NCBI GenBank assembly: GCA_000091205.1
Contig: AP006491.2
From: Cyanidioschyzon merolae
Taxonomy: Eukaryota
Direction: 5' to 3' (one strand)
DNA length: 64,000 bases
Of this stretch, positions 2,807 through 56,133 are shown piece after piece. Every line of letters begins with the position of its first letter. Within the stretch, counting starts at the first letter, position 1. The notes under the pieces are model-generated. The model did no database searches. It was not told the origin of the DNA and saw only the letters and a program-made list of their open reading frames with translations. Made by a program: the position numbers and the translations under genes.

Positions 2807-5800
2807 TTATGCGCTGGTGCTGGTGCTGGTAGTGTTCACGAGCTGTTGCACGGATACTGCCGTCACCGTACCGTTCGGTGGAAATACAGACCTAACCATC
2901 CCAAAGACGAATAAGACACTCATGAGGTTCTCAACAGGTTTCGTGTTGTTTGGCAGTGTCAGTAGCTGAACAGCACCGGTGGTTGTCACATTAAGCGGAA
3001 CACGTAATGCGTATGGGATCGTTCCATTCGCACTTGCCGCTTGCGTGACATTCACGTCCTGGATACCTGTGATGTTGCGCACAGCCGATACGAAGCGATC
3101 ACGGAAGAGAGCGTTTCGGGTGGCGTTTGTAAAGTCCTCCACGGAGACGCCCTCCATCTGGAAGGCCACATTGATCGCTGCTTTGCCTGCTGGTGGTGAC
3201 GGGAAAGCGGCCAGGTTCGCCGGCCCCGGAACCGGGGATGCTGCCGGCGTTGGCGATGCTTCGCAGAGCAGACCCGAAAAGCCCGGCACACAGTAGCAAA
3301 CGCCATTGATGCAGGCACCATTACCGTTACAGCAGGTTGCGGTCGTCGCGTTCTCCGCCGTTATGCCCGCCGGTCGGCACGAGCTGACGCAAAGTGTTCC
3401 ATTCAAGTCGAATAGGCGACTTGGCTGTGCCAACGAGTACAGAGGAGGAAGCTCCGATGGTCTACCCAAAAAGTCCAGGGAGGTAATGTTCTTGGTAGGC
3501 GTGACCCGAACGGTGATATTCGGGCTCGATGCTGCCCTCGCGACACTGATGTACGTCTCCGTGGAGACGCTCGTGGTCGTCTCCAGCCGAGTATACTCGC
3601 TCGCAACAACCTGTCCAAATGAACCGGACTGCACTGTGCTTTGCAGCGTCGAGTAAACGGATAAGTACTCCACCACAGACGACATGACACGTACAGAGAT
3701 GCGATTGGCGTGCCAGCGCACACCAGTCGCGGAGCTTGACGAGCTCGTGTAGGTCACGAGGCCATTGCTCTGGGCCTGAACTCCATTGCAACTAGAAGGA
3801 GCGCTGCCGCCTGTGGAAGTCGAGAGACATTCGCAGTTGGTGATCTCGACCGCAGTGGGCACCAGACCACACGAGCTTGCTAATGTGTTCTGCACGATAT
3901 ACGAAATCTGGTCACACGTCCAAACGTTGATCTGCTCGACGACCTCGACGTCAATCTGCCATTCATACCAAACAATGCAGACAGGAGGCCGTTTGACGAC
4001 CACCTCGACCCATTTCACGGGAGCCGGAGCAACCGCAGATACGTATTCAGCGGTCGAGGTTACCAGCTGCGAGTACTGAACGATATCGGTATAGAGTTCG
4101 CCACCGCCACACTTGGACTGATACAGCTGAACACGTTGCCAAAAGTAGTTATTCACGAAGTTGTCACGAATTGCATACGTGTACTGGATCGTGTACGTGG
4201 AAAACGTCTCCAAGCGGATGTGGACGACTGCATTCCAGGTATCGATTTGCTCACACGAATGGATCGTTACGATTTCGCTCGGTATGCCAATATCGTTGCA
4301 CGAGTTCAGGATCGCCACTTTGACATCATTGCAGCTCAGAACCTGCGTACCAAAGAATGCAGATCGACAGTAAAACGCTGTCTCAATGAAGACTCGCCGC
4401 GGATAGATCTGTACTGGGACATAAATGATGCTGGTGCTCTGTTCCAGGACAACGGACGTTACTTGCTCGTATTCGACGGTGCTCACGGTGAGCGACGGCG
4501 AGATTACTGTCGTCGTCTCGCTAGCGCTGACATACAAACTCTGCAGATACACGTAAGCCTGGTACATCCGTTCTTGCCAGTTTGCCGGTGCATACTCGGG
4601 AACGATCGAGCAGGCAACGTAGATAGAGCACTCTGTCTCGATAGACAAATGCAAACTGCCCTTGCGTGGCTGGCTATAAAGCAGACTTTGGCTGCCATCA
4701 TCCTGCACCATGAGCAGAGGTTGTGCGGAACGCCGACTTGTGCCGGAGCCAGAGCTCGCCAGATTCACCACAACATCTGTCTCCGTGAAAGACTCGACAT
4801 CCAAAAAGGCATAGTAGTAGACGCGCTGTGCTGTGGATATAACTTCCGAGCAACTCGCACTCACGCCGACCGCGATCCGAATGGTCGGATTGTCTGGCAA
4901 GACTATCTTGTTGGTCGGAAGCGGACTACCATTCGGGAGCGCTGTGAGGTTGGGGGTTGGTGTTGGCGGAGGTACTGGCTTTCCCGCGCCGCTCGGCAGA
5001 TTAAGTGTAGTGATACTCGTGACAGAGAGTAAGCTCGCGAGTTTCACCTGCACAGTGCTGGCCTCTGAAACTGCCACGACCACAAAGACGGTGAATTGAA
5101 TATTCACTGCGACTGTAGTCGATGTGGTAACGCGCATCTTGGTAGAATCTCGATCCCCCATGAATTCCGAGAACCATCTCAGAGGAGCCAACAGTCCCAA
5201 ACGTGAGGAACTCGTTGAGGTCGGAGCAGCAGCACAGTTGTTCGAGACGGTAACATTGGATGCCGGCACGCCGAGAGCAGATGCAACTGCAGCGGCGATC
5301 GCTGACGCTGCAGACTGACAAACCTCTGCGGAGGTGACAGAAAGGTACGTGCCCTGAGATACTGTTGTAATAGCGGGTGTCGGTGGTGGCGTCGGTGCTG
5401 ATGTCGGAGTAAAGGTTGCCGACACGCTCGGGGACGTGCTCGGTGATACCGAGGTACTCGGTGAGCTCGTTGGCAAATGCGACGCACTTGGTGAAGGGCT
5501 CGGTGATACCGATGTACTCGGTGAGCTCGTTGGCAAATGCGACGCACTTGGTGAAGGGCTCGGTGATACCGAGGTACTCGGCGAGCTCGTTGGCAAATGC
5601 GACGCACTTGGTGAAGGGCTCGGTGATACCGAGGTACTCGGCGAGCTCGTTGGCAAATGCGACGCACTTGGTGAAGGTGTCAGTGGTTCCGAACTCGGAG
5701 ACGGTGCCGCGGTAACCGGCGAGCTTATGCTTGATGATGGATGCAATGTAATGCTCGGTGATGCGTGGAACGTTGCGCTGCTTCCAGCCGAGGCTGAACG

Positions 5801-6571
5801 AGAGGGGCTCAACGTCCCAGTCAGCACAGTCGATATCGATGGCGAAGGCACTACTGAGCTAAATCCAGTGCTTGTCGATGACGGCATTGGTGTCAAGGTT
5901 TCCGCGGCACCAGAACTCGGTGAAGGGCTTCCAATGCTCGAGGGTGATACGGCGTGAGTTGGTAGTGTGCTCCCTGGAATCGTTGTTGTCGACGACGGCG
6001 TTGGCACCACAGTTGGTGTCCCCGCAGACGCAGAGGCATGTGTCGATGTCGGTGTCAGCAATGATGTAGGTGTAGGTGAAGGCGTTGGAGTCGGCGTCGG
6101 CGTCGGTGTCGGTGTCGGTGTCAGCAACGGCGTAAGTGTAGGTGTAGGTGTAGGTGTAGGTGTAGGTGTAGGCGTTGGAGTCGGCGTCGGCGTCGGTGTC
6201 GGTGTCGGTGTCAGCAACGGCGTCGGTGTCGGTGTCGGTGTCAGCAACGGCGTCGGCGTCGGTGTCGGTGTCAGCAATGATGTAGGTGTAGGTGTAGGTG
6301 AAGGCGTTGGAGTCGGCGTCGGCGTCGGCGTCGGTGTCAGCAACGGCGTAGGTGTAGGTGTAGGTGTAGGTGAAGGCGTTGGAGTCGGCGTCGGCGTCGG
6401 TGTCGGTGTCGGTGTCAGCAACGGCGTCGGCGTCGGTGTCGGTGTCAGCAATGATGTAGGTGTAGGTGTAGGTGAAGGCGTTGGAGTCGGCGTCGGCGTC
6501 GGCGTCGGCGTCGGTGTCGGTGTCAGCAACGGCGTAGGTGTAGGTGTAGGTGTAGGTGAAGGCGTTGGAGT

Positions 6572-6608
<37 letters not shown>

Positions 6609-6832
6609 ACTGACACCGAGGGTAACGGTCTCACAACGTCCGGAACTTGGGGAAACTCCGTCTCCCCCTCAGCCTGGTGTGGCTCTGCGAGCACCAACAA
6701 TGACCCCCGCTCAGCTCTCCCTGTGTGCTTACCCCATAACTTCCAGTTGAGCGGTAAGCTGCCACCTAGCAAAAGGAGAATAAAAAACGTGAACAAAAAG
6801 TGACGGAGCGCAGCTTTTTGAAAAGCCGCCAT
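2807..6832 (-). CDS. secreted mucin-like Thr/Pro/Ser-repeat protein with Cys-rich ectodomain and EGF-like module (paralog B)
   Basis: The track ORF starts at a TTG (6856). The first in-frame ATG is at 6832 and gives [26 protein letters not shown], a signal-peptide-like N-terminus. There are long (TP)n runs, 20-aa [20 protein letters not shown] repeats, a Cys-rich block ([15 protein letters not shown]...) and an EGF-like [25 protein letters not shown]. It is collinear with the ectodomain of the 11830..18837 ORF but stops (TAA) just before the position of that paralog's transmembrane helix. Confidence 0.7.
5430..5680. repeat. 60-bp tandem repeat x4 (coding, 20-aa Ser/Pro repeat of mucin paralog B)
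   Basis: The unit ggtgataccgaggtactcggtgagctcgttggcaaatgcgacgcacttggtgaagggctc repeats almost perfectly, head to tail. Confidence 0.85.
6060..6600. repeat. hexamer/12-mer microsatellite-like arrays (GGTGTA/GGTGTC/GGCGTC)n encoding (TP)n on the minus strand
   Basis: Visible long runs of gtgtaggtgtaggtgtcggtgtcggc. The plus-strand GVGVGV ORF 5967..6803 is the antisense of these runs. Confidence 0.85.
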
Positions 6833-8216: not shown

Positions 8217-8918
8217 TTATAGATCCACGTAACTATCGACCGGTTCGGCATTTCCACCACCGCAATCCCCACATTTTTTGACAAGACCAAAGCAGGCCCT
8301 CCCGCACATGCAGGTGCCTCGGAGTACAAGTAAAAATATGATCAAAATGAGAAGCAGAACCGCACCCACAGGAGCTACAATAAAGATGATTATCGAATCT
8401 CCCTGCGAGCCGGAGTTGGACGTACTTGGCACCTGCGGAGTCGGCGACACCGTGATCGACGCTAGAGCGAATGAAGTCATATGCAGGTTCGACACCGCTC
8501 TTGTGACCTGCGCCGACGCCGTCGCCGCATAGGACGCGGGAAAAGGCACCAGCGTTGGCAATTGCTCCGCTGTCGGTAGGGGTGAGGTTTCTGCGGGTGT
8601 TGGCGACGGCAACGACCGCGATGGCGAAGACTCCGCCGATGGCGACGGCGATGGCGATGGTTCCGTGTGCGCAAAGCGTCCGACCCCTGGGTACCTCTCT
8701 ATCAAAATCCCACCGTTTTCAGCGGGAACAGCGCGGAATGATGCGCGCGGTTCGAGACCTCTCATGAAAACCGCGACTTGCTCCGCGTTGTGAGACACGG
8801 CTGAAATCGACACTGGGACTGTCGGCTTCGTTGTTGTGGATAACAGTGACCTGCGACGCTGGTGCCTCGCAACGAGCCGCCGCGGCTGCCAAGCACTTTT
8901 CCGAAAGTGAGCACACAT
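8217..8918 (-). CDS. small Ser/Pro-rich single-pass membrane protein (hypothetical)
   Basis: ATG start. Has an [29 protein letters not shown] region, one strongly hydrophobic helix IIIFIVAPVGAVLLLILIIFLLVL, and a Cys-rich tail CMCGRACFGLVKKCGDCGGG. No signal peptide at the annotated start, so the 5' end is uncertain. Confidence 0.3.
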   Translation of the reverse strand: MCAHFRKSAWQPRRLVARHQRRRSLLSTTTKPTVPVSISAVSHNAEQVAVFMRGLEPRASFRAVPAENGGILIERYPGVGRFAHTEPSPSPSPSAESSPSRSLPSPTPAETSPLPTAEQLPTLVPFPASYAATASAQVTRAVSNLHMTSFALASITVSPTPQVPSTSNSGSQGDSIIIFIVAPVGAVLLLILIIFLLVLRGTCMCGRACFGLVKKCGDCGGGNAEPVDSYVDL

Positions 8919-11829
8919 ATCGTTTCAATATACGCAAGACCAAGACTTTTTCTCGTTCTAAAGGCGGTACTAGCCCAAAAAAGCTAAGGAAACACGATCC
9001 AAAAGAAGCGCTTCGCACAGCGCTATCCGGTGTGCAGCGAAGAAGATACAGCGCCCGCAGCGTGGTGTTGTGATCTTCGACGCAATGCACGTGCTCGTGA
9101 CATACAATTCAACGGGAGCTGACGCGCTGCGGCCCCAACGGAGCTGCCGCATCATCACGTCGCTGTGCGGTGCAATGTGACACCCTGTAACGCGGTGTGC
9201 AGGATTTCGACGCCCCCGCACAGCACCGTTGGCACGAACGCTACCGAGCGACGCTTCGTCGATTGCATCGACTTTCCATGGCACGTCGAAGCGCAGCTTT
9301 TAAATTGAGTCATTTAGGGATGATACGGATACGGACATTTCGATCTCGCATCGCCGTCGCGTGTCGATCCTGTATCTTGCATTCGACGCTGGCGCGATTG
9401 CTGACGGGAAGCCCGTTTGCCGTCAGTCGCGTGCTAGAAACGGCATTCTGCAGGCTTGATTGCCACATACCAGCGTGCACAGGTGATCAGCGCCTTTTCT
9501 GATGAAAACGTAAAGTTCGAGTACCTTGTCCAATGGTATCTTCTGTCTGGAGACGCCTGCGCTGAACCGCGTTGTGCCGAAGCGGTGCCCCGATATGCAG
9601 GCACACGCGACACGGCGGATACGTATTCGGGCCGGGCGAGGTCATCTCTTCCGTGATCTGGCGTCCGATGGACGAAAGTCCGCTTATCGCCGCCACGAGC
9701 GCTCGGAATCAACGGAGCGGAAGCAGCAGTTTGCGGAGACCGGCCAGCGGGCAACCCTAGTCCAATCTGCGTCTGTGATACGGCATGGTCGGTGTATCCG
9801 ATCAGCGCTTTGGGCTATGCATTTGCGGGATAGTCTTCAAAGCGCCGCTGTTGATGCCACAGCCCGAGTGTCCCCACTGAAGCGATTCGAAGGGAGGATT
9901 CTTCCGCTCTGGACAAGTTCAGTGCTCGCTGGGACGCTGTACAGATTATCTCCTCGGGTTTTATGAAAAAGAAGCACCAGCGTTCAAGTCTTTTAAAGAG
10001 TGCACCGCTCATGTGGACGATGTCCAGATTCTTGGTTGCAATTGCAACGGTACTGAAGACCAGCGGCTGTTGCACGCGAGCACGCACCTCTAGAGCAAAC
10101 AACGAATGAGGCGGTATGGACCGGCTCGACTGGAGAAAACTTTCCATCCTCCGTAACGCTGTCAGATTAAAATGATATACAGAACAAGTTGCTCTGTTCC
10201 TGCCATGACAATCTTTTCCGAGCTTTTTCCCAGATGTACCGCCTCCACATTCGAAGTGCAGCAATAGGGCTAGGGGATGCATACGTGGTATTTGGATTCT
10301 CGGTTGTCTTTTTTTCCGACTAGTTCCGTAGGTTCTTTCGTGCTGGAATTCGTTATGTCATCGGAATCGAGATGACTCGAGACGTCCTCGAACTAGCTTT
10401 CGTACCATGACGGACATCATTATCCTACGCATATGTAGACGTCTACACGCTTCTCCATTGCTCACCTGGAACATACGGAATTCACGTTTTCTTCGAGTCT
10501 TCGATCTTTCTGGACCAAGGCGAATTGTGGGCGCAGCGATTCTCGCTACCGGATTGACGAAGAAAAACACTTCACAACGTTTGTGGACGACTTGTTCACA
10601 TGCTCATGCCGAGTATTCGCTCAGCTTGACGCGTTACATAATCGATGAAGATCCAAAGAAAAATCCCCCCTCTTTGTATCCATCGACGAATCCACATTCA
10701 ACGACAGCATGAACCCTCACAGATGGTCTGCTTTCAGAGACGTCCATCTCTTCCGTTTCCACGGAAAAAGGGTCTCGGACTCGGACTTGAGCCATCATAG
10801 CGATCGCTTCCTGTGGATGGTGCGTCACCGCTGTACACGAAGGACCCGCGATCCAATCGAGATTTCTCAACGCGATCTCTAGCCTGGATGCTTCTTCGTT
10901 AATTGTTTCATCATAGACAAAATCGCGTTGCACATACTCCCTATCGAACGGAAGAGTGTACGCGAGCGTCTGCAGCGGACAGAGTACTCGTTGTGAGGAT
11001 TGCCCAGAAGACGCCGGTGATCTTTGCGTATGGCACAGGTCGTGTCAACGGAGGCGGGTATCGAGACGCGTCTCGCATATCCGTCAAGGGCATGTACCCA
11101 GCGATGAAGCACACCTGAACGCACCACTCGTCGACCCTCGGAGCAGGAAACGAAGTGGTGAACATACGGAAACACATGACCGCAGCCAGGTATCGCTGCT
11201 GCAAAAGGCCGCACCGAGGTCGTACACAAAACGGATGAAAATGACAAGCGAAGCGTCAATCGCAACTACCGTGTCTGCCTGAAAAGCGTCGACAACAGCC
11301 AGACGCAACGAAACCGGGACTCGAACGCTACCACCAACATCCGTCGACTGTAGATGCTGGAACCGAAGAGTGAGGAGACACCGACGCATGTAAAACCGGA
11401 TACAAGGAACATCAAAAGAAAGCAGTCGAAAAAAGCACCCAAATGCCAGTCTGGACGACAACGCGAATACACAGCAACAAGAGCGTGTGTGCGCGAGTTG
11501 GACGACCTGCTCTTCTCTATTCTGGCATTGGTGTCATTTACGAATACCCGTCGCTTTTGTACATGAAAAACGGATGATTCGTGTACTTATGACTTCAATT
11601 CCCTAGTTGCCACCAGAGCAACGTCCATCAATGAACCCAGCGGGGAACGTCAACTTCCGAGCGCTTGTACCGCAACCTCCACGGTCGGCAGCACGATGTG
11701 CACGCGAGTCGATACGCGCTCCCAGTGCATACATTCAAGGACTCCATTGCATCAATGAACTACCGTACACGATCCGTACGCTTCGTGTGAACAAACCAGA
11801 CGCGTAATGAGTCCGGGCCTGTGTCAGCG

Positions 11830-14016
11830 TCAGCGCGTCACCGAGGTGCTGCGCGATCGCGAGCGCTTTCGCTGAGACAATACACTCAGTGCAGCAGCGG
11901 AACTCGAACGCACCAGCTTTGTACTCGAGGGCGGCAAGGCCCCTGGCATGCTTCCCTCGAGAGCGCCCTTGCCCGCGAGCATGTCCGACGCTGTAGGCAC
12001 GAGAGCTTCAATGAATGCACGAGCGTCGAGCATACAACTTCCACCAAAGAACACCTGCGTGCCGCTCGACTCCGAAAGATCATAGGCGTACCGCGTCTCA
12101 TTCCACGAGAGGCCGCCAATGACAAAGATAATGATGCGACGCGTCGCAGACTCGTCTACGCTGCCAACCGATGACGAAGAGGAACGTCGACGATTGCGAC
12201 GACCGAGAGACGACTCACGGATTGCCGACGACGAACGACGCCTGCGAAGACTTCGACTCGTGCGGCGAATACCGCTCTCCTCGTCATCGGTAGAGAAATC
12301 GGAGAGCTCACCGGCTGACGAGTCGTCGGACATGTACGCGCGATCGAAGTGGCGGCTCTCGCCGGCATACGGGAACGCGGACTCACCGAGGCGACGCTCG
12401 ATAAGCAATGTCGCAAGTTTCGCGAGCCGTCCATGGGTCTGTTGCATGGCTTGCATCTCCGATGGCGTCTTCCGCAACGGCACTCCGTAGGCGATGCACA
12501 AACGCTCAATGACAGCGGTCAGCTGCGGTGCAGTCCGGATATCCGATGCTGTGGTAGAGGTTCCAGTCGATGCACTCGACCCTGCCGAAGTACTCGAAAG
12601 CGCCGCCGATCCCTGTGACGATCCCCATGACTGGTGCTCCCCGAATGAAGAGCGAGCAAATGCCATCGAGACCAGCTCCTGAATCTCAGCTGTGCTCGTA
12701 TTCTGCGTGAGCGCAAACAATACAATCAGACGAGCTTTGTCCACCAGGCGAATATTGTCCTCGTCGAGCAATTGTCGCAGCTGTCCTCGGACACGCGTTT
12801 CAGCATCGGTACCGACGACACGCTGCGCATTGAGCATGTCTCGTTCGAGAGCAGCAATCCTGGCGATTTGCGCATTCTCCCAGAGATCCTGCGCGCGACG
12901 AGCCAGGCGCTGGTGACGCTCCAGTGACGCAGCGTCGGCATCGCTAGGCAGCAAAACGTTCGAGTCGGAGGTGCTCGTGGCGAGCGCGCCTCGTTTCGCG
13001 GTCCGGAGGCGCCCGACCTGCTCCACTGGGCGATAGCGCACGAGGCTCCAGACATCGTCAGCGTACTCATCGAGCACCAGCTGGGATCCAGCACCGCTAT
13101 CAGCCTCCAGCAACGAAGGGAATTCCTGCTTCAGCACCGTCTGATACGTATCATCGTGCAACAGGGGCGTCAACAGATCGCAGTCTCTGTCAACAATGAG
13201 GAGCACCGTCCGAGAAGCTCCAGCTCGAGGAGCGGATCCCGCTCTTGTCGGCAGAATGAGAGGACCGTACTCGTCGAGTATCCTGACGAGCTCCTCTGCG
13301 ACGGCTGCGGGTGCGCCCGTGAACGAGTCTCGCGCGAAACGGATACGCGGTCGCTCCTGCAGTACGGAGCACAGCGTCAACAAGGACTCGGCAATGGTTT
13401 GCGGCCGCACCGGCTGCAGATCCGCAGGATAACGGCCGAGATGAAACAGGCGCTGCTCGAATGCACAGAAATCGATGTTGAGTTCCGTGAACTGCGCAAG
13501 CCGTTCGACGAGCTGCGATGCCGCCCGAACTCGATCAAGATACGTTTCGTCGACGCGAGATGTCGCGAAAACTTCAATGATGGTCTTGCTGGAGACCTTG
13601 GGCGTCTCCGAGTCATCGTGTTCTCCGCTTCCTCTGTCAGACGCTTTGGTCACATGTTCAAGCGACGCAATCAGCGTATTCACCGCGTTCGACGTCGGCT
13701 TGAAGAGGTACACGAGACGCCGACCTTGGTCGCTTGGCGGCAACGCGTTGAGCGTTGGCGGCTGCTGACCAAGTTCCTCAACAAGGAACACACCATTGCC
13801 CACGAGGTCACTCATGCGGCACGCTGCAGACAATACCTGGATGCCGCGATCGTCTGCTACTAGCATTCCGGGAGCGCGACGCTGATCAGCGGAGCTGCCG
13901 CGGGAGTCTTCCGCACCGGCAAGCGACGACCTTGCTGTGCCCGCCAGCATGCCGTACAGCAGGCGCTCTCGCGCGAGTTCGCGCAGTGTGGCGTTCGGGC
14001 CCACAACCAGAGGCAT
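11830..14016 (-). CDS. Sec1/Munc18 (SM) family-like protein module, ~729 aa (possibly Vps33/Vps45-like)
   Basis: Begins [24 protein letters not shown]. Contains [24 protein letters not shown], which matches the SM-family LLILDRxxDxxTPLLHxWTYQA motif, and C-terminal [20 protein letters not shown], which matches the SM C-terminal iivFviGGvTysE motif. It has low-complexity S/R-rich inserts. It is in the same uninterrupted reading frame as the upstream mucin-like module, with no stop codon between them. Confidence 0.6.
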
Positions 14017-17000
14017 GGTAACCACATTGGCGCTGTCGACTGTGCCCAGTGCGGCAGCTGTGCTGCCAGTTGGTCTCAACGCTGCCACATCAACGGTATC
14101 GTTCTGGGAGACTCGGGATCCGGGAGCTATTCCCGCGAGTGCCGCTGACGACGGCACTGTGCCTGTTCGGTTGCGCTGGCGTTGCTGTCGACGTCGCCTT
14201 CGCCGCAAGAAAAGCCATACAGCCAACACGGCGAGAATCAGGGCAGCAGCACCGGCCACAGCGCCTCCAATGATTGCCCCCAGAGGTGCACCCGAGCCAG
14301 ATCCGCTGCCGGAAATCTGAGAGGGGTCACCTGTGGCGACACGTCGCACCTCCACTGATACCACGGATCCATTTGGAGGGAACGCCTGTCGAACTTGCTC
14401 ATAGAGGAACACAGTGCTTAGCAGACGGGTGACCACATTCACATCGCTCGGTTTCAGGATCAACTGTACGGCGCCGGTAGTGGTGACACTCGTCGGTGCC
14501 CGCATCAACATGTAATGCAGGGAATTATAGGACTCGCTGCCGCCGACCACGTGAATGCGTACCAACGAGATCTGCGCAATGGACTGGATGCTTTGCATCA
14601 GCAAATCGCGGAAGCGGGCGTTGTTGGTGCTGTTGTAGAACTGACTATACGACACGCCACGCAATTCCATCAAGAGATCCACGGCATCGTAGCCCGAAGG
14701 AGGCGGCGGAAAGCTCGGTAACGCCAAACTGGATGGCGAAGGCGACGCAGACGCTGTCGACGACGACGACGACGATGATGATGAAGGCGCATTCTGGCAC
14801 AGCAAACCTCGATAGCCACCAACGCAGTAGCAGACGCCACTGACGCATACCCCGTTTCCACTGCAGCAGTTTGCCGGCGAGACGTCCGAATCGTTGATGC
14901 CAGGCGGCCGGCACGAAGCGGTGCATATCCTTCCACTGAGATCATACAATCGCCCGGGCTGGACGACGGAATAGAGCGGCTCCAATGTCGACGGTTTGCC
15001 CAAAAAGTCCAACGAGACTAGACTCCGGTTCTGGGAAATCTGAATGCTCACATTTCCATTCGTACTGGAATTGTGATGGCTACGCTGATGACGAAGCTCA
15101 CGAAGCTTCCTCGCAAAGGTGTTCTTGATGTGTGCCGAGTGGTACGCAGTGGTCATATTTTGGCTCACATTCTGTGCCTGGAAAGCATTCGTCAGCACTC
15201 GACCGGAAACACGATTGTAGTGCCATTGCACTGCGCCAGCTGACGTGTTCGTACCGGCAGGTGTTGGGCTCGCGGTTGGCATCGGCGTCTCTGTACCTGA
15301 CCGCACAGGTGCTGATGTTACCGTCTCTGGAGGCGACGCGGTTGCACTCGCAACAATGGCGTTCGCTGTCGGGGTGACAAGCACCGCAGATGGCGTCGGC
15401 GCAACGCTTGAACTGAGCGGCAAGACTGTGCTCGTGGGAGTTGTCGTCGACATTGGTGCCGACTCGAAAATGACCTCTCCGCTGCTGGTCGTGGTGAAAC
15501 CGCTGCAGCTCGCCGGAACGCTACCCTGTCCATTGACCGCGATACACTCACAATTCTCGATGACAATTTCGGAGACGAAGACGCCGCAAACCTCGGCGAG
15601 CGTCTGCTGCATCACATACGCAACCTCAGAACACGTCCAGTACTCGACGACGTCCAGTGCCTGACAGTAGTATTCCCATTCGATCCAGACGCCGCCAACT
15701 GCAGGCCGCTCGGTCACGACTTCAACCCATTTCACTGGCGTTGGCGTTGGCGTTGGCGTTGGCGTTGCGGATGGAGCGGCGTAGCTGCTGGTACCGATCA
15801 CGTCGATGTACGAGTATTGCACGATATCGGTGTAAAACTCGACGCTGCCACAACTGGTTTCGTAGGTATTCACCTGCTCAAAGTAGTAGCCATTCTGGAT
15901 ATTGTCTCGCAAGGCGGCAGTGAACCCGGAAGCATACGTCGAGTACGTATCGATTTGGAGGTGCACCACCACGTCCCATTCGTTGACCTGCTCGCAGGAG
16001 CGAATCGTCACCACCTCGGACGGGATTCCGATATTGTCGCAACTGTTCAATATCGCTGTCTGCATCGAGTTACAGCTTAGTCGAACGGAGCCGGGCGACG
16101 CCGAGCCGCAGTACAAGGAGGTCCGAAGGTAGACACGACGAGGATAGACGGGCACCGGCTCGTAGACAAGATTGTCGCTGTTTCCAAGCAACGCCTCCAC
16201 GACACTCTCCTGCTGGGTGTACGTCAGCGAAGTGACGCTTTCAGAGTTCAGCGTCGTCAACGTCACTGTTGTTGATGTTTCGGCTTGCATAATGATCTCG
16301 CTCTGTAGCGTGTATGCTGCTTGATAGTTGCGCTGTTGCCAGTTTGCCGGGGCGTACCTGGGGTAGACTGCGCACGCTACGCTGAATGTATAGGTCGTAG
16401 AATAGCTGAGACGAAGAGCACCCTTACGTGAGCGCCGCCAACTTGTCAAACCGCGTAACCCGTTTTGAACGAGATCGGACGGCGGTGCACCCGCTCGCAT
16501 CACTTGAGACGAAGAGCACGGGCTCAGAGAAACATCCTCCAACGTGAAATCGGGAATGTCCGCGAATGCGTTGTAGTATGCCGTTTTCGCCGCGGCTTGA
16601 ATCGCCTCGCAGGAAATGTTTGCGTTTCCGGGAATCTGTATCGTGGGCTGGTCAGCAAATACAAGTTTTTGCTGAGGGATCGGGCTACCATTCGGAAGCG
16701 TGTTCAGTAGCGGGGTCGGTGTGGGAGGTGGCGACGGAGGTCCGACTCCTTGTGCGAGGCGCTGATGACGCAACGAGGTCGAGCTCAGCAGCTTGTTGAG
16801 TTCTTGCTGAGCTTGACTCGCATTAGATACGGGTACTGTTGCGAAAACAGTAAATTGCACAAGGCCACCGGCCCCAGAGCTCGTCTGACGGAACAGCGTC
16901 GTAAGGAATGGTAAATCGAACGACGCACCCGCTGGGAGAAAGCGCTGGATGCGTTCCTGTAGCAGTACTTCTCGATTCAGCGGCAAGCCTGAAGAGAAGC

Positions 17001-18837
17001 ATCCATCGGACACGGTGACAGCACTCGGCGATATGCCCAAGGCGGATGCAACTGACGCAGACAGAGCAAGCGATGCGGACGAGCATGAAGCCTCAGTTCG
17101 AACAGAGAGGAAGGCGCGCCCAACAATGGACGTCGTAGCGGGTGTTGGTGATGTTGACGGTGCAGGCGTGCTTGTCGCGTTGCTCACAACAGGCGTCGAT
17201 GATACAGAAGGCGACGGTGCAGGCGTGCTTGTCGCGTTGCTCACAACAGGCGTCGATGATACAGATGGCGACGGTGCAGGCGTGCTTGTCGTGTTGCTCA
17301 CAACAGGCGTCGATGATACAGATGGTAGAGGCGTAGGCGTGCTTGTCGCATTGCTCACAACAGGCGTCGATGATACAGAAGGCGACGGTGCAGGCGTGCT
17401 TGTCGTGTTGCTCACAGCAGGCGTCGATGATACAGATGGTAGAGGCGTAGGCGTGCTTGTCGCGTTGCTCACAACAGGCGTCGATGATACAGATGGCGAC
17501 GGTGCAGGCGTGCTTGTCGTGTTGCTCACAACAGGCGTCGATGATACAGAAGGCGACGGTGCAGGCGTGCTTGTCGCGTTGCTCACAACAGGCGTCGATG
17601 ATACAGAAGGCGACGGTGCAGGCGTGCTTGTCGCGTTGCTCACAACAGGCGTCGATGATACAGAAGGCGACGGTGCAGGCGTGCTTGTCGCGTTGCTCAC
17701 AACAGGCGTCGATGATACAGATGGTAGAGGCGTAGGCGTGGGCGTGGGCGTGGGCGTCGGTGTTGGCGTAGGTGTCGGTGTTGGCGTAGGTGTCGGTGTT
17801 GGCGTAGGCGTCGGTGTCGGCGTAGGTGTCGGCGTAGGTGTCGGCGTAGGTGTCGGCGTAGGTGTCGGCGTAGGTGTCGGCGTAGGTGTCGGCGTAGGTG
17901 TCGGTGTCGGCGTAGGTGTCGGTGTCGGCGTAGGTGTCGGTGTTGGCGTAGGAGTAGGCGTAGGTGTCGGTGTTGGCGTAGGAGTAGGCGTAGGCGTCGG
18001 TGTTGGCGTTGGCGTTGGCGTTGCCCGACGGGTAGACGTCATTGCCGGTGTTGAAGAGGCAAGCGAATCTACAAGGCTGTTTCCATGAATGTAACTATCT
18101 CGCGGCCGAGACGTCGGTGTCGCAGAGCCTGTCCCTGAACTCGTTAAACTTGGTGTGAAAATCGCACTCCCACTGTTTGAGCTAATTCCCGTTCCTGTGG
18201 ATGATGCAGAAGCGGAACTAGTCGCGGTATTCACGCCGAAGCTGGGCGATGGTTGCAAAATAGGCTGAACAGTAGGTCCTGTTGTGTGCTGCGTATTCGG
18301 TGATGGTGATGGAGTTGGTGTAGGAGACGGTAACGGTGTCGGTGTAGGCGTCGGTGTAGGTGTAGGTGTAGGTGTAGGTGTAGGCGACCTCATAGGTGTT
18401 GGCGTCAGCGCTACCGTGGGTGTGCTCAGCGCCGGTGTCGAGACGGGACCGGGCGTCGAACTAGTTATGCTGGTTGGTGGCCCAGACACCGCTGAAACCC
18501 CAGAGTCCGTCGAGGTGCCACTCCCGCCTGTCGACGCAGCAGTGCTCGTCCCTGTAGATGTAGGTCCCGTGAAGCTGGTGCCACTACTGCTACTGTCAGT
18601 GAGGCCACCAGGCCCAGAGTTACGCCCGCCCAAAGCAGGACGCAGCATCTCGAACCAGTCGCGTTCCTCGAGTGACACATGGTCACTTTGCGAGGGTGCC
18701 TGTCGCGGACCCGCCGCGCTTGCGCAAGCCCGAATCGGTCCCCAAACTAGCGAAAGCAATAATAATAAAGATAGAACAAGAAAAATTAACGTTCCATATC
18801 TTGATCCTCTCATCGTGCGTAAAGTGCCTTCATTCAT
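14017..18837 (-). CDS. mucin-like type I membrane protein module (paralog A): signal peptide, TP repeats, 19-aa repeats, Cys-rich ectodomain, EGF-like module, TM helix, poly-Arg stop-transfer
   Basis: ATG at 18837. The signal peptide is [25 protein letters not shown]. It has (TP)~60, about ten [19 protein letters not shown] repeats, the EGF-like [25 protein letters not shown], and the TM helix [24 protein letters not shown] followed by [14 protein letters not shown] (fwd ~14185-14290). No stop codon follows. The frame continues into the SM-like module. Confidence 0.65.
17150..17740. repeat. 57-bp tandem repeat x~10 (coding, 19-aa repeat of mucin paralog A)
   Basis: The unit gcaggcgtgcttgtcgcgttgctcacaacaggcgtcgatgatacagaaggcgacggt repeats with a few point variants. 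It is followed (17740-18010) by (GGCGTAGGTGTC)n arrays encoding (TP)n. Confidence 0.85.
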
Positions 18838-53355: not shown

Positions 53356-56133
53356 ATGACGATTGGTACAGCGGAAGCGCGGAGGGAAAATGAACGCGTG
53401 CACGTCCTGCACGAAAAACACCTCTTTTACAGCTTCGAGGGTACTCGGTATACAGGTGACGCGGATATTTACATGTACGGGGCGATGAAGTACCTGACGA
53501 ACCTGAAGAACCATGTGACGATGAACCTCGAACGTTTCATGATACGCGCCGTGTTTGCGCTGTACCCGGGAATCTCACGCAAGGGGATATGGGCGATTAT
53601 CAATGGCGCCACGAACGATCGCAGGCATGAAGATGAGGTCGAATTTGTCGAGAAGAAGGCGTCAAACGAGAGCACGAATGAAGCTTCTGTAATCCGTGCG
53701 GCTATGCAAGAGCACGGCGCAGTCATGGGGCTACCGAATCCAACAGAAAAGATGTCAGAGTTAAAAAAAGATAAGGAAAGGTACTATCGCCTCATCCTGC
53801 GCTATTTTGTGTTTCTGAATCGTGAACTCGAACGCAAGGCGGAGATGAAGCTGAGTGAAGAGACAAATGAAGAGTGGGAGAGACGGAAGGCTTTCCTAAT
53901 GGGGAAGCAGTTAAACGTGGTTCCGTTGTGCAACATCAAGTAGTATTTTGTGAGTATCGATTCAGGCGTCCTTTACGGCATCATGAAGGAGATCAGTCCG
54001 GGGTTCAATGTTAGCAGGGAGGACTTCATCGGTGAAAACCGGGAGACGTACTGGAAGAGTATCTTCGATTTCAAACGTCTCAAAGTCAGCAAACAAAAGT
54101 TATTCACTGGGATGATCGAAACCGATGGCGTAGCCATGTGTGCACACTATCGGCGGTTGAAGAAAGAGTGTCCAGTTCCACCCTCGGCTGCACCCGTGAC
54201 GAAGGATGAAGAAAACAAAGAAGAGGATCCTGCGATGCAGGAGGTGGAGGATAACGACTTTGTCGTTGACATTACGAAGGATGAAGATGAGAAGACGGCG
54301 GATCCTGCGACGCAGGAGGTGCAGGATAACGGCTTTATCATTGGCGCGGCGAAGCATGAAGAAAACAAAGAAGAGGATCCTGCGACTCAGGAGGTAGAGA
54401 ATAACGACCTTGTTGTTGACATTACGAAGGATGAAGATGAGAAGACGGCGGATCCTGCGACGCAGGAGGTGCAGGATAACGGCTTTATCATTGGCGCGGC
54501 GAAGCATGAAGAAAACAAAGAAGAGGATCCTGCGACTCAGGAGGTAGAGAATAACGACCTTGTTGTTGACATTACGAAGGATGAAGATGAGAAGACGGCG
54601 GATCCTGCGACGCAGGAGGTGCAGGATAACGGCTTTATCATTGGCGCGGCGAAGCATGAAGAAAACAAAGAAGAGGATCCTGCGACTCAGGAGGTAGAGA
54701 ATAACGACCTTGTTGTTGACATTACGAAGGATGAAGATGAGAAGACGGCGGATCCTGCGACGCAGGAGGTGCAGGATAACGGCTTTATCATTGGCGCGGC
54801 GAAGCATGAAGAAAACAAAGAAGAGGATCCTGCGACTCAGGAGGTAGAGAATAACGACCTTGTTGTTGACATTACGAAGGATGAAGATGAGAAGACGGCG
54901 GATCCTGTGATGCAGGAGGTGCAAGATAACGACCTTGTCGTTGACGCGACGAAGCATGAAGAAAACAAAGAAGAGGATCCTGCGACTCAGGAGGTAGAGA
55001 ATAACGACCTTGTTGTTGACATTACGAAGGATGAAGATGAGAAGACGGCGGATCCTGTGATGCAGGAGGTGCAAGATAACGACCTTGTCGTTGACGCGAC
55101 GAAGCATTAAGAAAACAAGAAGGCGGATCCTGCGATGCAGAATGTGCAGGATAACGACTTTGTCGTTGGCGCGGACCCTGGGAATACGAATATCATAACC
55201 ATCGCTGTACCCAAGCGTGCGGAAGATGGTACTGAAGGTAATTTACGTCAGAAAGACATGCGTCTTTTGAGATTCTCGAGGGCAAGATATTACCGAGAAT
55301 CCGGTATAATGAATGCGAGGAAGAAAATCGAGACTTGGAATTCAGGAATGAAAGAGCGCCTGGAAGCTTTGAGCGAGGTGACGAGCCGCGGAGCGGATTA
55401 TGAAGCTTTTCGGAGATTCATGGAAGTTCGTGTTGCCCATTGGGATGCGCTGTGGAAGGAGTATACAAAGCCCAGTTGGGCTCGTCTGCGAATGAATCTG
55501 TACGGTGTGAAGCAGCGGGCGTTTGCGAATTTTTTCAATCAGTTGAGCGCCCTGAAGGAGGATGAAAGTCAGAGGCTCGTAGTAGCATACGGAGCAGGGC
55601 GATGGAAGACCCAAAAAGGGACTACGCCAGCTCCAACGACAAGAACGTATAAGGAGTGCGCACGGCGTTTTGCCTCGATACCTATAGACGAGTTTCAAAC
55701 ATCGTATACACACCATGAACTGAGGTGCACACTCCAGAGGGCCGAGATGGAAAAGTGCCAGACGAACCCTGAGGATATGAAAAAGTACGGACCGCTGACG
55801 GAAGAGCAAATGGAAAGGAGGACGAAAGTTCGAAGATTATTTGTATTAGTAAGTACAACCGATGACGGCAAGAAACGCATGGAATTCGTGAACCGTGACT
55901 TTAACGCCGTTATCAATCTAAGGAGATGTGCGGTGCTGGAGAAAAGATCTCCAGATTCGACAAGAGGGAACTTTGTTGGACAACCTATCCAAGTCGAACT
56001 ATATGAGAAAAAGTTGGAAGCAGTAGTGAGTGGCTGGTCCATAGAGACGGGGAGGCGTCTGTACGTCAGTTGGAGACTTCTTGTCAAGGGCGGGTTTCTC
56101 GCCACTACTGTACACTGCTGTCGTTCGACTTAG
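53356..56133 (+). pseudogene. Fanzor/TnpB-like RNA-guided RuvC endonuclease gene (~920 codons in one frame) interrupted by two in-frame stops (TAG 53941, TAA 55108)
   Basis: Three consecutive track ORFs (53356..53943, 53950..55110, 55135..56133) are all in the same frame, each separated by a single stop. The last carries RuvC-I VGADPGNTNIITIAV (GxDPGxxN), the hallmark IPIDEFQTSYTHHELRC (vdEyyTSkxC, the RuvC-II region / start of a degenerate zinc ribbon) and RuvC-III EFVNRDFNAVINLRR (RDxNAAxNI). The TAA sits exactly where sister repeat units have GAA (..KHEENKEEDPA.. versus ..KH*ENKKADPA..), so it is a point nonsense mutation. Confidence 0.65.
54200..55180 (+). repeat. 150-bp tandem repeat x~6.5 inside the Fanzor-like ORF (50-aa acidic repeat)
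   Basis: attacgaaggatgaagatgagaagacggcg recurs at 54271, 54421, 54571, 54721, 54871 and 55021. The unit encodes TKDEDEKTADPATQEVQDNGFIIGAAKHEENKEEDPATQEVENNDLVVDI. The last unit runs directly into the RuvC-I strand QDNDFVVGADPG, so the array is a serial duplication of the segment just upstream of, and including the start of, RuvC-I. Confidence 0.85.

Follow-up and report, generated by a model that had tools for sequence, protein, structure and literature searches.

A predicted membrane-anchored Sec1/Munc18 protein with a mucin-like ectodomain in Cyanidioschyzon merolae and its relatives

Introduction

Few components of eukaryotic membrane fusion are as strongly conserved as the Sec1/Munc18 (SM) proteins, and recruitment by syntaxins is part of their regulation. 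To our knowledge they have universally been described as soluble or peripheral proteins with neither signal peptide nor transmembrane (TM) segment, which is a description and not a formal criterion. Can an SM protein instead be built into a membrane from the start? The question is raised by CMI070C, a gene on chromosome 9 of Cyanidioschyzon merolae 10D that lies within a 64,000-nucleotide stretch of contig AP006491.2 (the window, whose coordinates are used throughout). A first-pass annotation, made from the letters of the window alone, had reported here an uninterrupted open reading frame (ORF) of 2335 codons that joins a mucin-like type I membrane protein to a complete SM protein, with two tightly packed in-frame genes as the alternative. 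The ORF listing and its translation return exactly that frame (11830..18837, minus strand, ATG to stop, 2335 aa). Here we show how the encoded protein is laid out, that this plan is conserved and that the linker between its two halves is coding; from these results we infer membrane tethering and a role with SNAREs. We consider it probable that CMI070C is one type I membrane glycoprotein whose tethered SM domain couples glycoprotein delivery to the fusion machinery.

Results

Plan of the protein and conservation of the open frame

Each element previously named (signal peptide, TP repeats, Cys-rich ectodomain, EGF-like module, TM helix, poly-Arg tract and SM motifs) could be located in the translation, giving this order from the amino to the carboxy terminus, where pLDDT is the predicted local distance difference test score:

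18715..18837, minus strand: signal-peptide-like N terminus (aa 1–41), with a basic n-region and hydrophobic core, then ACA–SA
17128..18615, minus strand: mucin-like region rich in Ser, Thr and Pro, with (TP)n tracts and a 19-aa repeat present in about 10 copies
14872..17127, minus strand: Cys-rich ectodomain, without a Pfam family, 37% identical to the secreted paralogue CMI068C
14779..14871, minus strand: EGF-like Cys module (aa 1323–1353), CxCxxGxxGxxC
14338..14682, minus strand: juxtamembrane ferredoxin-fold (SEA/MAD-like) domain (aa 1386–1500)
14206..14280, minus strand: single TM helix (aa 1520–1544), hydropathy 2.64
14170..14205, minus strand: poly-Arg/basic stop-transfer segment (aa 1545–1556)
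13990..14169, minus strand: predicted cytosolic linker of about 60 residues, predicted disordered, with a conserved NDT(V/I)DV(A/G)AL(R/K)P motif and Met1608 (14014–14016)
12007..13989, minus strand: complete SM domain (aa 1617–2277), its last beta-alpha-beta unit preceded by an S/R-rich insertion (RRRRSSS...)
11830..12006, minus strand: low-complexity C-terminal tail, pLDDT <50, its basic S/R end conserved in relatives, followed by the stop codon

The other two frames of the ORF contain 55 and 72 stops per 2335 codons, and the chance of an open in-frame junction of 63 codons in a single genome is about 0.06; because this is not negligible, comparative evidence was needed. A word-indexed search with the SM part returned three metagenome ORFs (67%, 25% and 27% identity), all of which carry the juxtamembrane domain, TM segment, basic cluster, linker and SM domain in one ORF and, when extended upstream on their contigs, reveal a Met with a signal-peptide-like start and an S/T/P stalk. 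The whole plan is present at locus L012 as a clean ATG-to-stop ORF of 1355 aa. An exhaustive HMMER scan covering 1.84 billion representatives identified 12 proteins with a TM-like segment 44–80 aa upstream of the SM start (the TM helix of CMI070C lies 73 aa upstream of it), the SM domain beginning at most 60 aa from the N terminus in the other 140 best matches. Members of this fused set include Galdieria sulphuraria GJD10261.1 and XP_005708010.1, G. partita GJQ08927.1, Cyanidiococcus yangmingshanensis KAF6001990.1 and the Logan/ENA proteins P0057, P0081 and P0187. Published tables also record a signal peptide, a single TM segment and a Sec1 domain for two CMI070C homologues of Cyanidium caldarium; for G. 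partita they give TM segments in g718, g1423 and g1424, of which g718 and g1423 have a signal peptide and Sec1 domain as well (PMC13353863). One open segment includes both the TM-plus-basic motif and the SM start at each of the 15 loci that were fetched and contain the gene.

The linker was compared through the proportions of non-synonymous (pN) and synonymous (pS) sites that differ. Synonymous sites are saturated between the window and its 67% relative (pS ~0.67–0.8), and the 49 aligned linker codons give a pN of 0.34 against a pS of 0.67 (Fisher p = 2.7e-4). A Cyanidiococcus-type pair gives 0.11 against 0.81 over 68 codons (p = 1.5e-21), and the linker (which includes LTSGAGRPIPPPLPQDGYAMDDALSR in the Cyanidiococcus protein) is the most constrained protein segment of that pair. 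By these substitution counts, the TM-to-SM linker is evolving as coding sequence under purifying selection.

Variation among wild strains was read from nine environmental contigs with 99.3–99.6% identity to the window. Indels within the ORF measure only 3, 6, 12 or 57 bp; in one contig (L008) adjacent gaps of 5 bp and 1 bp total 6, and an intact ATG-to-stop ORF of 2305 aa is retained. The sole indel that is not a multiple of three is a 2-bp insertion relative to the window at 10666, ~1.2 kb downstream of the stop, which is found in all wild-strain contigs reaching that position and fits non-coding sequence. Logan contigs across the junction run up to ~1.1 kb past the stop and are DNA-like, not transcript-like; the wild-strain contig that includes the neighbouring AOX gene breaks off ~2 kb beyond it, at the expected beginning of the repeat-rich 5′ end of the ORF. 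Searches of codon-position GC and poly(A) motifs across the TM–SM junction were uninformative. Conserved frame, coding linker and indels in multiples of three thus support a single polypeptide, as first proposed, and the check suggested at the outset, whether the SM gene is likewise fused in related genomes, comes out positive at all 15 loci and in the Galdieria and Cyanidiococcus proteins.

Topology and linker

The N-terminal hydrophobic core of CMI070C spans aa 17–35 (Kyte–Doolittle 2.63), and relatives have similar N termini. An AlphaFold2 (AF2) model of residues 1510–2335, built from a 40-sequence alignment, predicts a long helix over the TM and basic stretch, the TM segment itself being helical with pLDDT 81–92. 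Between the window and locus L001 this segment has pN 0.12 against pS 0.72. A basic cluster follows the TM segment in all relatives; under the positive-inside rule, the poly-Arg tract after the TM helix places the C-terminal side in the cytosol. From signal peptide, single TM helix and poly-Arg tract together, a type I topology follows by established rules, with the ectodomain luminal or extracellular and the SM domain cytosolic, which agrees with the orientation put forward in the first-pass annotation. The intervening linker (ORF residues ~1559–1608) has pLDDT <50. In-frame Met codons lie at 14016 (Met1608), 13950 and 13866 (Met1658).

The SM domain

The C-terminal ~720 residues of CMI070C form a full-length SM part. 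Pfam Sec1 (PF00995) matches aa 1659–2277 with 170.7 bits (cutoff 30.7, E = 9.9e-50) over profile positions 3–574 of 575, and the SM motifs LLIVDRDCD (13203) and IIIFVIGGL (12135) are present together with the N-terminal motif (13986). The AF2 model (predicted template-modelling score 0.74) is confident for the SM core from about residue 1618 onwards, pLDDT being mostly >90, with low-confidence S/R-rich insertions and a disordered tail; it is predicted to adopt the three-domain, arch-shaped SM fold. A Foldseek comparison with the PDB returned SM proteins for 32 of 32 significant matches, led by Munc18-1 and Munc18-2 (E ~1e-27, template-modelling score (target) 0.69–0.73). The full-length profile match and the Munc18-like fold of the model bear out the initial description of a complete SM protein from 14016 down to 11830.

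Sequence matches in the PDB rank as Munc18-1 (E = 1e-22), squid Sec1 (1e-19), Munc18-2 (2e-17), Munc18-3 (4e-14) and Vps45 (1e-5), with no match to Sly1 or Vps33 among these hits. The sequence ranking of Munc18/Sec1 over Vps45 is clear and the fold ranking agrees with it weakly, which suggests a place in the exocytic clade. A quick neighbour-joining tree of SM proteins, which contained no outgroup clades, was star-like, also with respect to the grouping of the TM-anchored SM proteins. Koumandou et al. (2007) placed a C. merolae Sec1 with support, without stating its gene ID.

Two regions of the domain stand apart. An S/R-rich insertion occupies window positions 12100–12330 (aa ~2170–2245), and its RRRRSSS core is invariant in four of four aligned fused proteins, as is the basic S/R C terminus; the insertion may be a cluster of basophilic-kinase phosphosites or a membrane-binding patch. 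The domain-3a helical hairpin, which in Munc18-1 is the SNARE-templating element, is shortened in CMI070C and its 67% relative (window ~12830–12930, aa ~1969–2004), with deletions of 9 and 6 residues compared with Cyanidiococcus-type proteins and Munc18-1.

An anchored family in the Cyanidiophyceae

The window holds a paralogue of the CMI070C ectodomain:

2807..6832, minus strand: CMI068C, secreted and mucin-like, which has the ectodomain and juxtamembrane domain in common with CMI070C and ends before any TM segment

CMI068C aligns at 37% identity up to CMI070C residue 1500 and stops ~10 residues later without a TM segment, just as the first-pass annotation had it. The accompanying claim, that the TM segment and SM tail are specific to this one copy, does not hold: they belong to a family found in Cyanidioschyzon, Cyanidiococcus, Galdieria and, according to published tables, Cyanidium. 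Judged from sequence, the TM-anchored SM architecture appears to be an old, conserved cyanidiophycean family with several paralogues per genome. Because Galdieria and Cyanidiococcus have the anchored plan with short or different ectodomains, the anchored SM protein would date back to the ancestor of the class. Only CMI070C and CMI068C have the large Cys-rich ectodomain in common, and in Cyanidium too a CMI068C-like gene adjoins a CMI070C-like gene (PMC13353863); CMI068C therefore looks like an old copy of nothing but the ectodomain, and CMI070C less like a mucin that recently captured an SM gene.

Cyanidiococcus-type loci show a further arrangement, in which a longin/synaptobrevin (VAMP7-like) R-SNARE gene stands head-to-head with the TM-anchored SM gene. 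Its positions, upstream of the SM gene in each case, are:

L003 192–1025, minus strand: VAMP7-like R-SNARE
L004 7019–7843, minus strand: VAMP7-like R-SNARE
L012 4102–4935, minus strand: VAMP7-like R-SNARE

In G. partita, g1422 (VAMP71) adjoins g1423, the Sec1 protein with a signal peptide and one TM segment (PMC13353863). No VAMP7-like SNARE gene was found within the C. merolae window (tblastn E>0.9). A separate observation concerns a marine-type metagenome contig (L014), on which an SM ORF of an AT-rich organism (1303–2916) has an internal start MGCQQS...; this resembles an N-myristoylation/palmitoylation motif and may indicate a different, lipid-based anchoring of an SM protein.

The ectodomain

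Its sequence gives CMI070C the predicted layout of a type I transmembrane mucin: signal peptide, Pro/Thr/Ser tandem repeats and a single TM segment. Tandem Repeats Finder resolves a 57-bp unit in 9.9 copies (17156–17721) and TP units of 12, 18 and 36 bp (17729–18021 and 18317–18386), and repeat length differs in frame between wild strains (6-bp and 57-bp indels). The EGF-like module falls below Pfam cut-offs (EGF_Teneurin, E = 0.008, 16.6 vs 24.3 bits; EGF_2, E = 0.088, 13.6 vs 22.1 bits), and its Cys pattern is kept in CMI068C and at L001. Assignment of the juxtamembrane domain to SEA is weak. A candidate MUC1-like GSVVS autoproteolysis site within it was rejected on position: NGSVVSVEV (model residues 113–121) opens the last strand (116–125) instead of forming the beta2–beta3 turn, and the motif is not present in Cyanidiococcus-type relatives.

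Expression

Published transcript levels of CMI070C, in transcripts per million (TPM), are ~39 in diploid MS1, ~1.4 in the MS1-derived haploid and ~40 in 10D; the two Cyanidium homologues are diploid-specific, G. partita g718 and g1423 are diploid-enriched, and so is the adjacent secreted paralogue CMI068C (PMC13353863). Most family members are expressed in the diploid phase, in which the cells are walled, and this fits a surface- or wall-building role. A strain difference stands beside this pattern: CMI070C is silent in the MS1-derived haploid and at diploid level in haploid 10D, which a phase-specific model does not explain. In the same study each genome is credited with 10 SM genes, or 8 in Galdieria, and SM and SYP1 expression is linked to differences in extracellular matrix (PMC13353863).

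The locus

The public annotation has CMI070C (BAM79972.1) as one gene, "similar to syntaxin binding protein". It lies in the order CMI068C–CMX064C–CMI070C–CMI072C(AOX) (PMC13353863 Data Set 8), and a supplementary table of 2026 flags it with a Sec1/Munc18 superfamily domain and one Phobius TM segment (PMC13353863). Four neighbouring ORFs match deposited C. merolae 10D proteins exactly (AOX, BAM79973.1; CMI076C, BAM79975.1; RAE1, BAM79976.1; phosphoserine phosphatase, BAM79981.1). Exact-sequence look-ups of the full ORF and of the start variants M9, M1390, M1608, M1630 and M1658 returned no identical protein. The C. merolae genome is ultra-compact and almost intron-free.

Between the two mucin-like genes, the ORF at 8217–8918 (minus strand, 233 aa) specifies a small protein, rich in Ser and Pro, that has a TM helix and whose cytosolic tail is Cys-rich. 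This is probably CMX064C, a gene newly added to the annotation and expressed with very strong diploid specificity (TPM ~700 vs ~1; PMC13353863). Elsewhere in the window, positions 54198–55168 hold a strongly purine-rich 150-bp tandem repeat (6.5 copies, 96% matches, GC skew 0.25, AT skew 0.24) within overlapping long ORFs on both strands (53950..55110, plus; 54100..55107, minus).

Discussion

How else might the locus be read? In the window taken by itself, a mucin gene and an SM gene starting at 14016 or 13866 might be tightly packed and in frame by chance without a stop, given the open-junction probability calculated above for one genome and the ATG at 14016. Beyond the window this becomes highly improbable: the same open frame recurs across at least four genera and at every locus, substitutions in the linker follow a coding pattern in both of the independent pairs, and indels are in frame only. 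Such a mucin mRNA, terminating within the ORF, would moreover be without a stop codon, a start at 13866 would delete the first SM helix, and the published annotation has a single gene. We give even less credence to an artefact of assembly, or to a pseudogene in decay, in which unrelated sequences have been joined. The repeat-rich N-terminal part does break many metagenome assemblies, but the sequence at the junction is unique, and the same junction recurs in other species as well as in nine independent environmental contigs; the ratio of non-synonymous to synonymous substitution rates (Ka/Ks) is far below 1 along the whole protein, and the gene is transcribed at ~40 TPM (PMC13353863). Because of the conserved frame, the linker substitution pattern, the in-frame indels and the agreement of all 15 loci, we reject both the artefact and the chance juxtaposition of two genes that the first-pass annotation had kept as its alternative.

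A third possibility accepts one ORF and derives two products from it: the working SM protein would be mostly soluble, made from an internal transcription or translation start at Met1608 (14016) or by proteolysis of the linker, and the mucin–TM part would act separately. Met1608 and the residues that follow are identical in the 67% relative and resemble a canonical SM N terminus (Munc18-1 MAPIGLKAVVGEKIM), and a linker predicted to be disordered would on that account be accessible to proteases. However, Met1608 is not conserved in the Cyanidiococcus-type or Galdieria proteins, and the strong constraint upstream of it (the pN of 0.11 in the Cyanidiococcus pair) is unexpected for a discarded spacer or 5′ untranslated region; we regard two products as unlikely. 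That a soluble SM protein could arise by either route nevertheless weighs against a single tethered protein, as do several other points. SignalP gave no signal peptide for BAM79972.1 in the published table, and the Phobius flag of one TM segment is weak on its own because soluble proteins such as SLY1 receive the same flag there (PMC13353863). The shortened domain-3a helix means that SNARE-templating activity may be altered in CMI070C. Expression in the haploid, wall-less 10D weakens a strictly wall-building role, and SNARE binding and the membrane of residence are what we infer purely by reasoning.

With these points set against it, a single, membrane-tethered protein remains the reading we favour, and we propose the following mechanism. 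CMI070C would pass through the secretory pathway, and because it travels this route its SM domain would stay permanently tethered, first on the cytosolic side of the carrier and in the end on that of the plasma membrane. A disordered linker of 60–70 residues would let the SM domain reach SNAREs in the same membrane, where it may template exocytic SNAREs, pairing a SYP1-type syntaxin with a VAMP7-type R-SNARE; action on SYP1-type syntaxins at the plasma membrane is suggested because of the affinity to Sec1/Munc18. Delivery of a cell-surface or extracellular-matrix glycoprotein would thereby be linked to the fusion machinery. That an anchored SM element can be active follows from in vitro work with liposomes, in which a Munc18c peptide attached through a TM domain stimulates fusion only in cis with t-SNAREs (PMC9547204).

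The first-pass annotation had called a membrane-tethered SM protein a novel architecture. We found no description of a natural integral-membrane SM protein in the open-access literature, only engineered constructs, and to that extent the claim stands; the gene itself had been annotated before, and the 2026 table lists its Sec1 domain and TM segment. What was already public, then, are the gene models and the side-by-side flags for signal peptide, TM segment and Sec1 domain in a study whose main text has no mention of membrane anchoring (PMC13353863); what the present analysis adds is the reading of these as an anchored SM protein. A natural type I SM protein eliminates the recruitment step and puts a large glycosylated domain across the bilayer, which raises the questions of whether an anchored SM domain still chaperones or templates SNAREs, whether it acts from the vesicle or the target membrane, and whether the ectodomain reports on the cell surface or contributes to it.

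A broader proposal is more tentative, and we stop just short of favouring it: the Cyanidiophyceae may own an undescribed class of integral-membrane SM proteins, which would work while covalently anchored in the bilayer, whose mucin or lectin ectodomains would make the SM protein a surface or matrix component and its own fusion catalyst at once, so that exocytosis would be coupled to cargo or to surface state, and which would have expanded and become phase-specific to build the diploid surface. Such a family may explain why Cyanidiophyceae are reported to have 8–10 SM genes compared with the usual four, despite a minimal trafficking machinery (PMC13353863). These ideas can be pursued in a tractable organism. 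Homologous recombination is efficient in C. merolae and its haploid and diploid stages can both be cultured, so tagging, truncation and knock-out are feasible.

Relation to known systems

The closest comparison is with annotated cyanidiophycean homologues, which share the signal peptide, S/T/P-rich stalk, juxtamembrane domain, TM segment, basic cluster, a linker of ~45–80 aa and an SM domain that opens with (S/T)LR(E/Q)L.R.R(L/I)(L/F). Their ectodomains, by contrast, are much shorter or different, some having a lectin-like domain and none the large Cys-rich region. SM-domain identity to CMI070C is only ~24–27%, so some of them may be paralogues, not orthologues.

Exocytic SM proteins (Munc18-1/STXBP1, yeast Sec1p, squid s-Sec1 and Arabidopsis KEULE/SEC11) have the same full-length Sec1 domain, provide the best sequence and fold matches, and have in common with CMI070C the motifs VLSAACR, FTELN.DF, LL(I/L)(V/L)DR..D...P(L/F)LH..TYQ and (I/V)(I/V)F(V/I).GG...E.R.(A/S)Y(D/E). 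They are soluble or peripheral, recruited by syntaxins and without signal peptide, ectodomain or TM segment, whereas CMI070C carries an N-terminal signal-like segment and a TM segment in the same conserved ORF, in addition to its S/R-rich insertions and shortened domain-3a helix.

Animal transmembrane mucins of the MUC1/MUC16 type resemble CMI070C in layout (signal peptide, Pro/Thr/Ser repeats, EGF-like module, ferredoxin-fold juxtamembrane domain, TM segment and cytosolic tail) but have no detectable sequence homology to it, CMI070C having no Pfam SEA or mucin match. They end in a short signalling tail where CMI070C has a 720-aa SM domain, and GSVVS in CMI070C lies in the last strand, not at the beta2–beta3 cleavage position of animal SEA mucins.

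The anchoring itself has its nearest parallels in a TM-anchored, SNARE-like peptide of Munc18c (PMC9547204) and in TM-anchored Sec17 (PMC5540461), in which an SM-derived or SNARE-cofactor element is likewise fixed to the bilayer by a TM segment. Those constructs are artificial and were made for liposome assays; CMI070C is natural, its predicted anchor lies N-terminal to a whole SM domain, and a large luminal or extracellular domain is added on the other side of the membrane.

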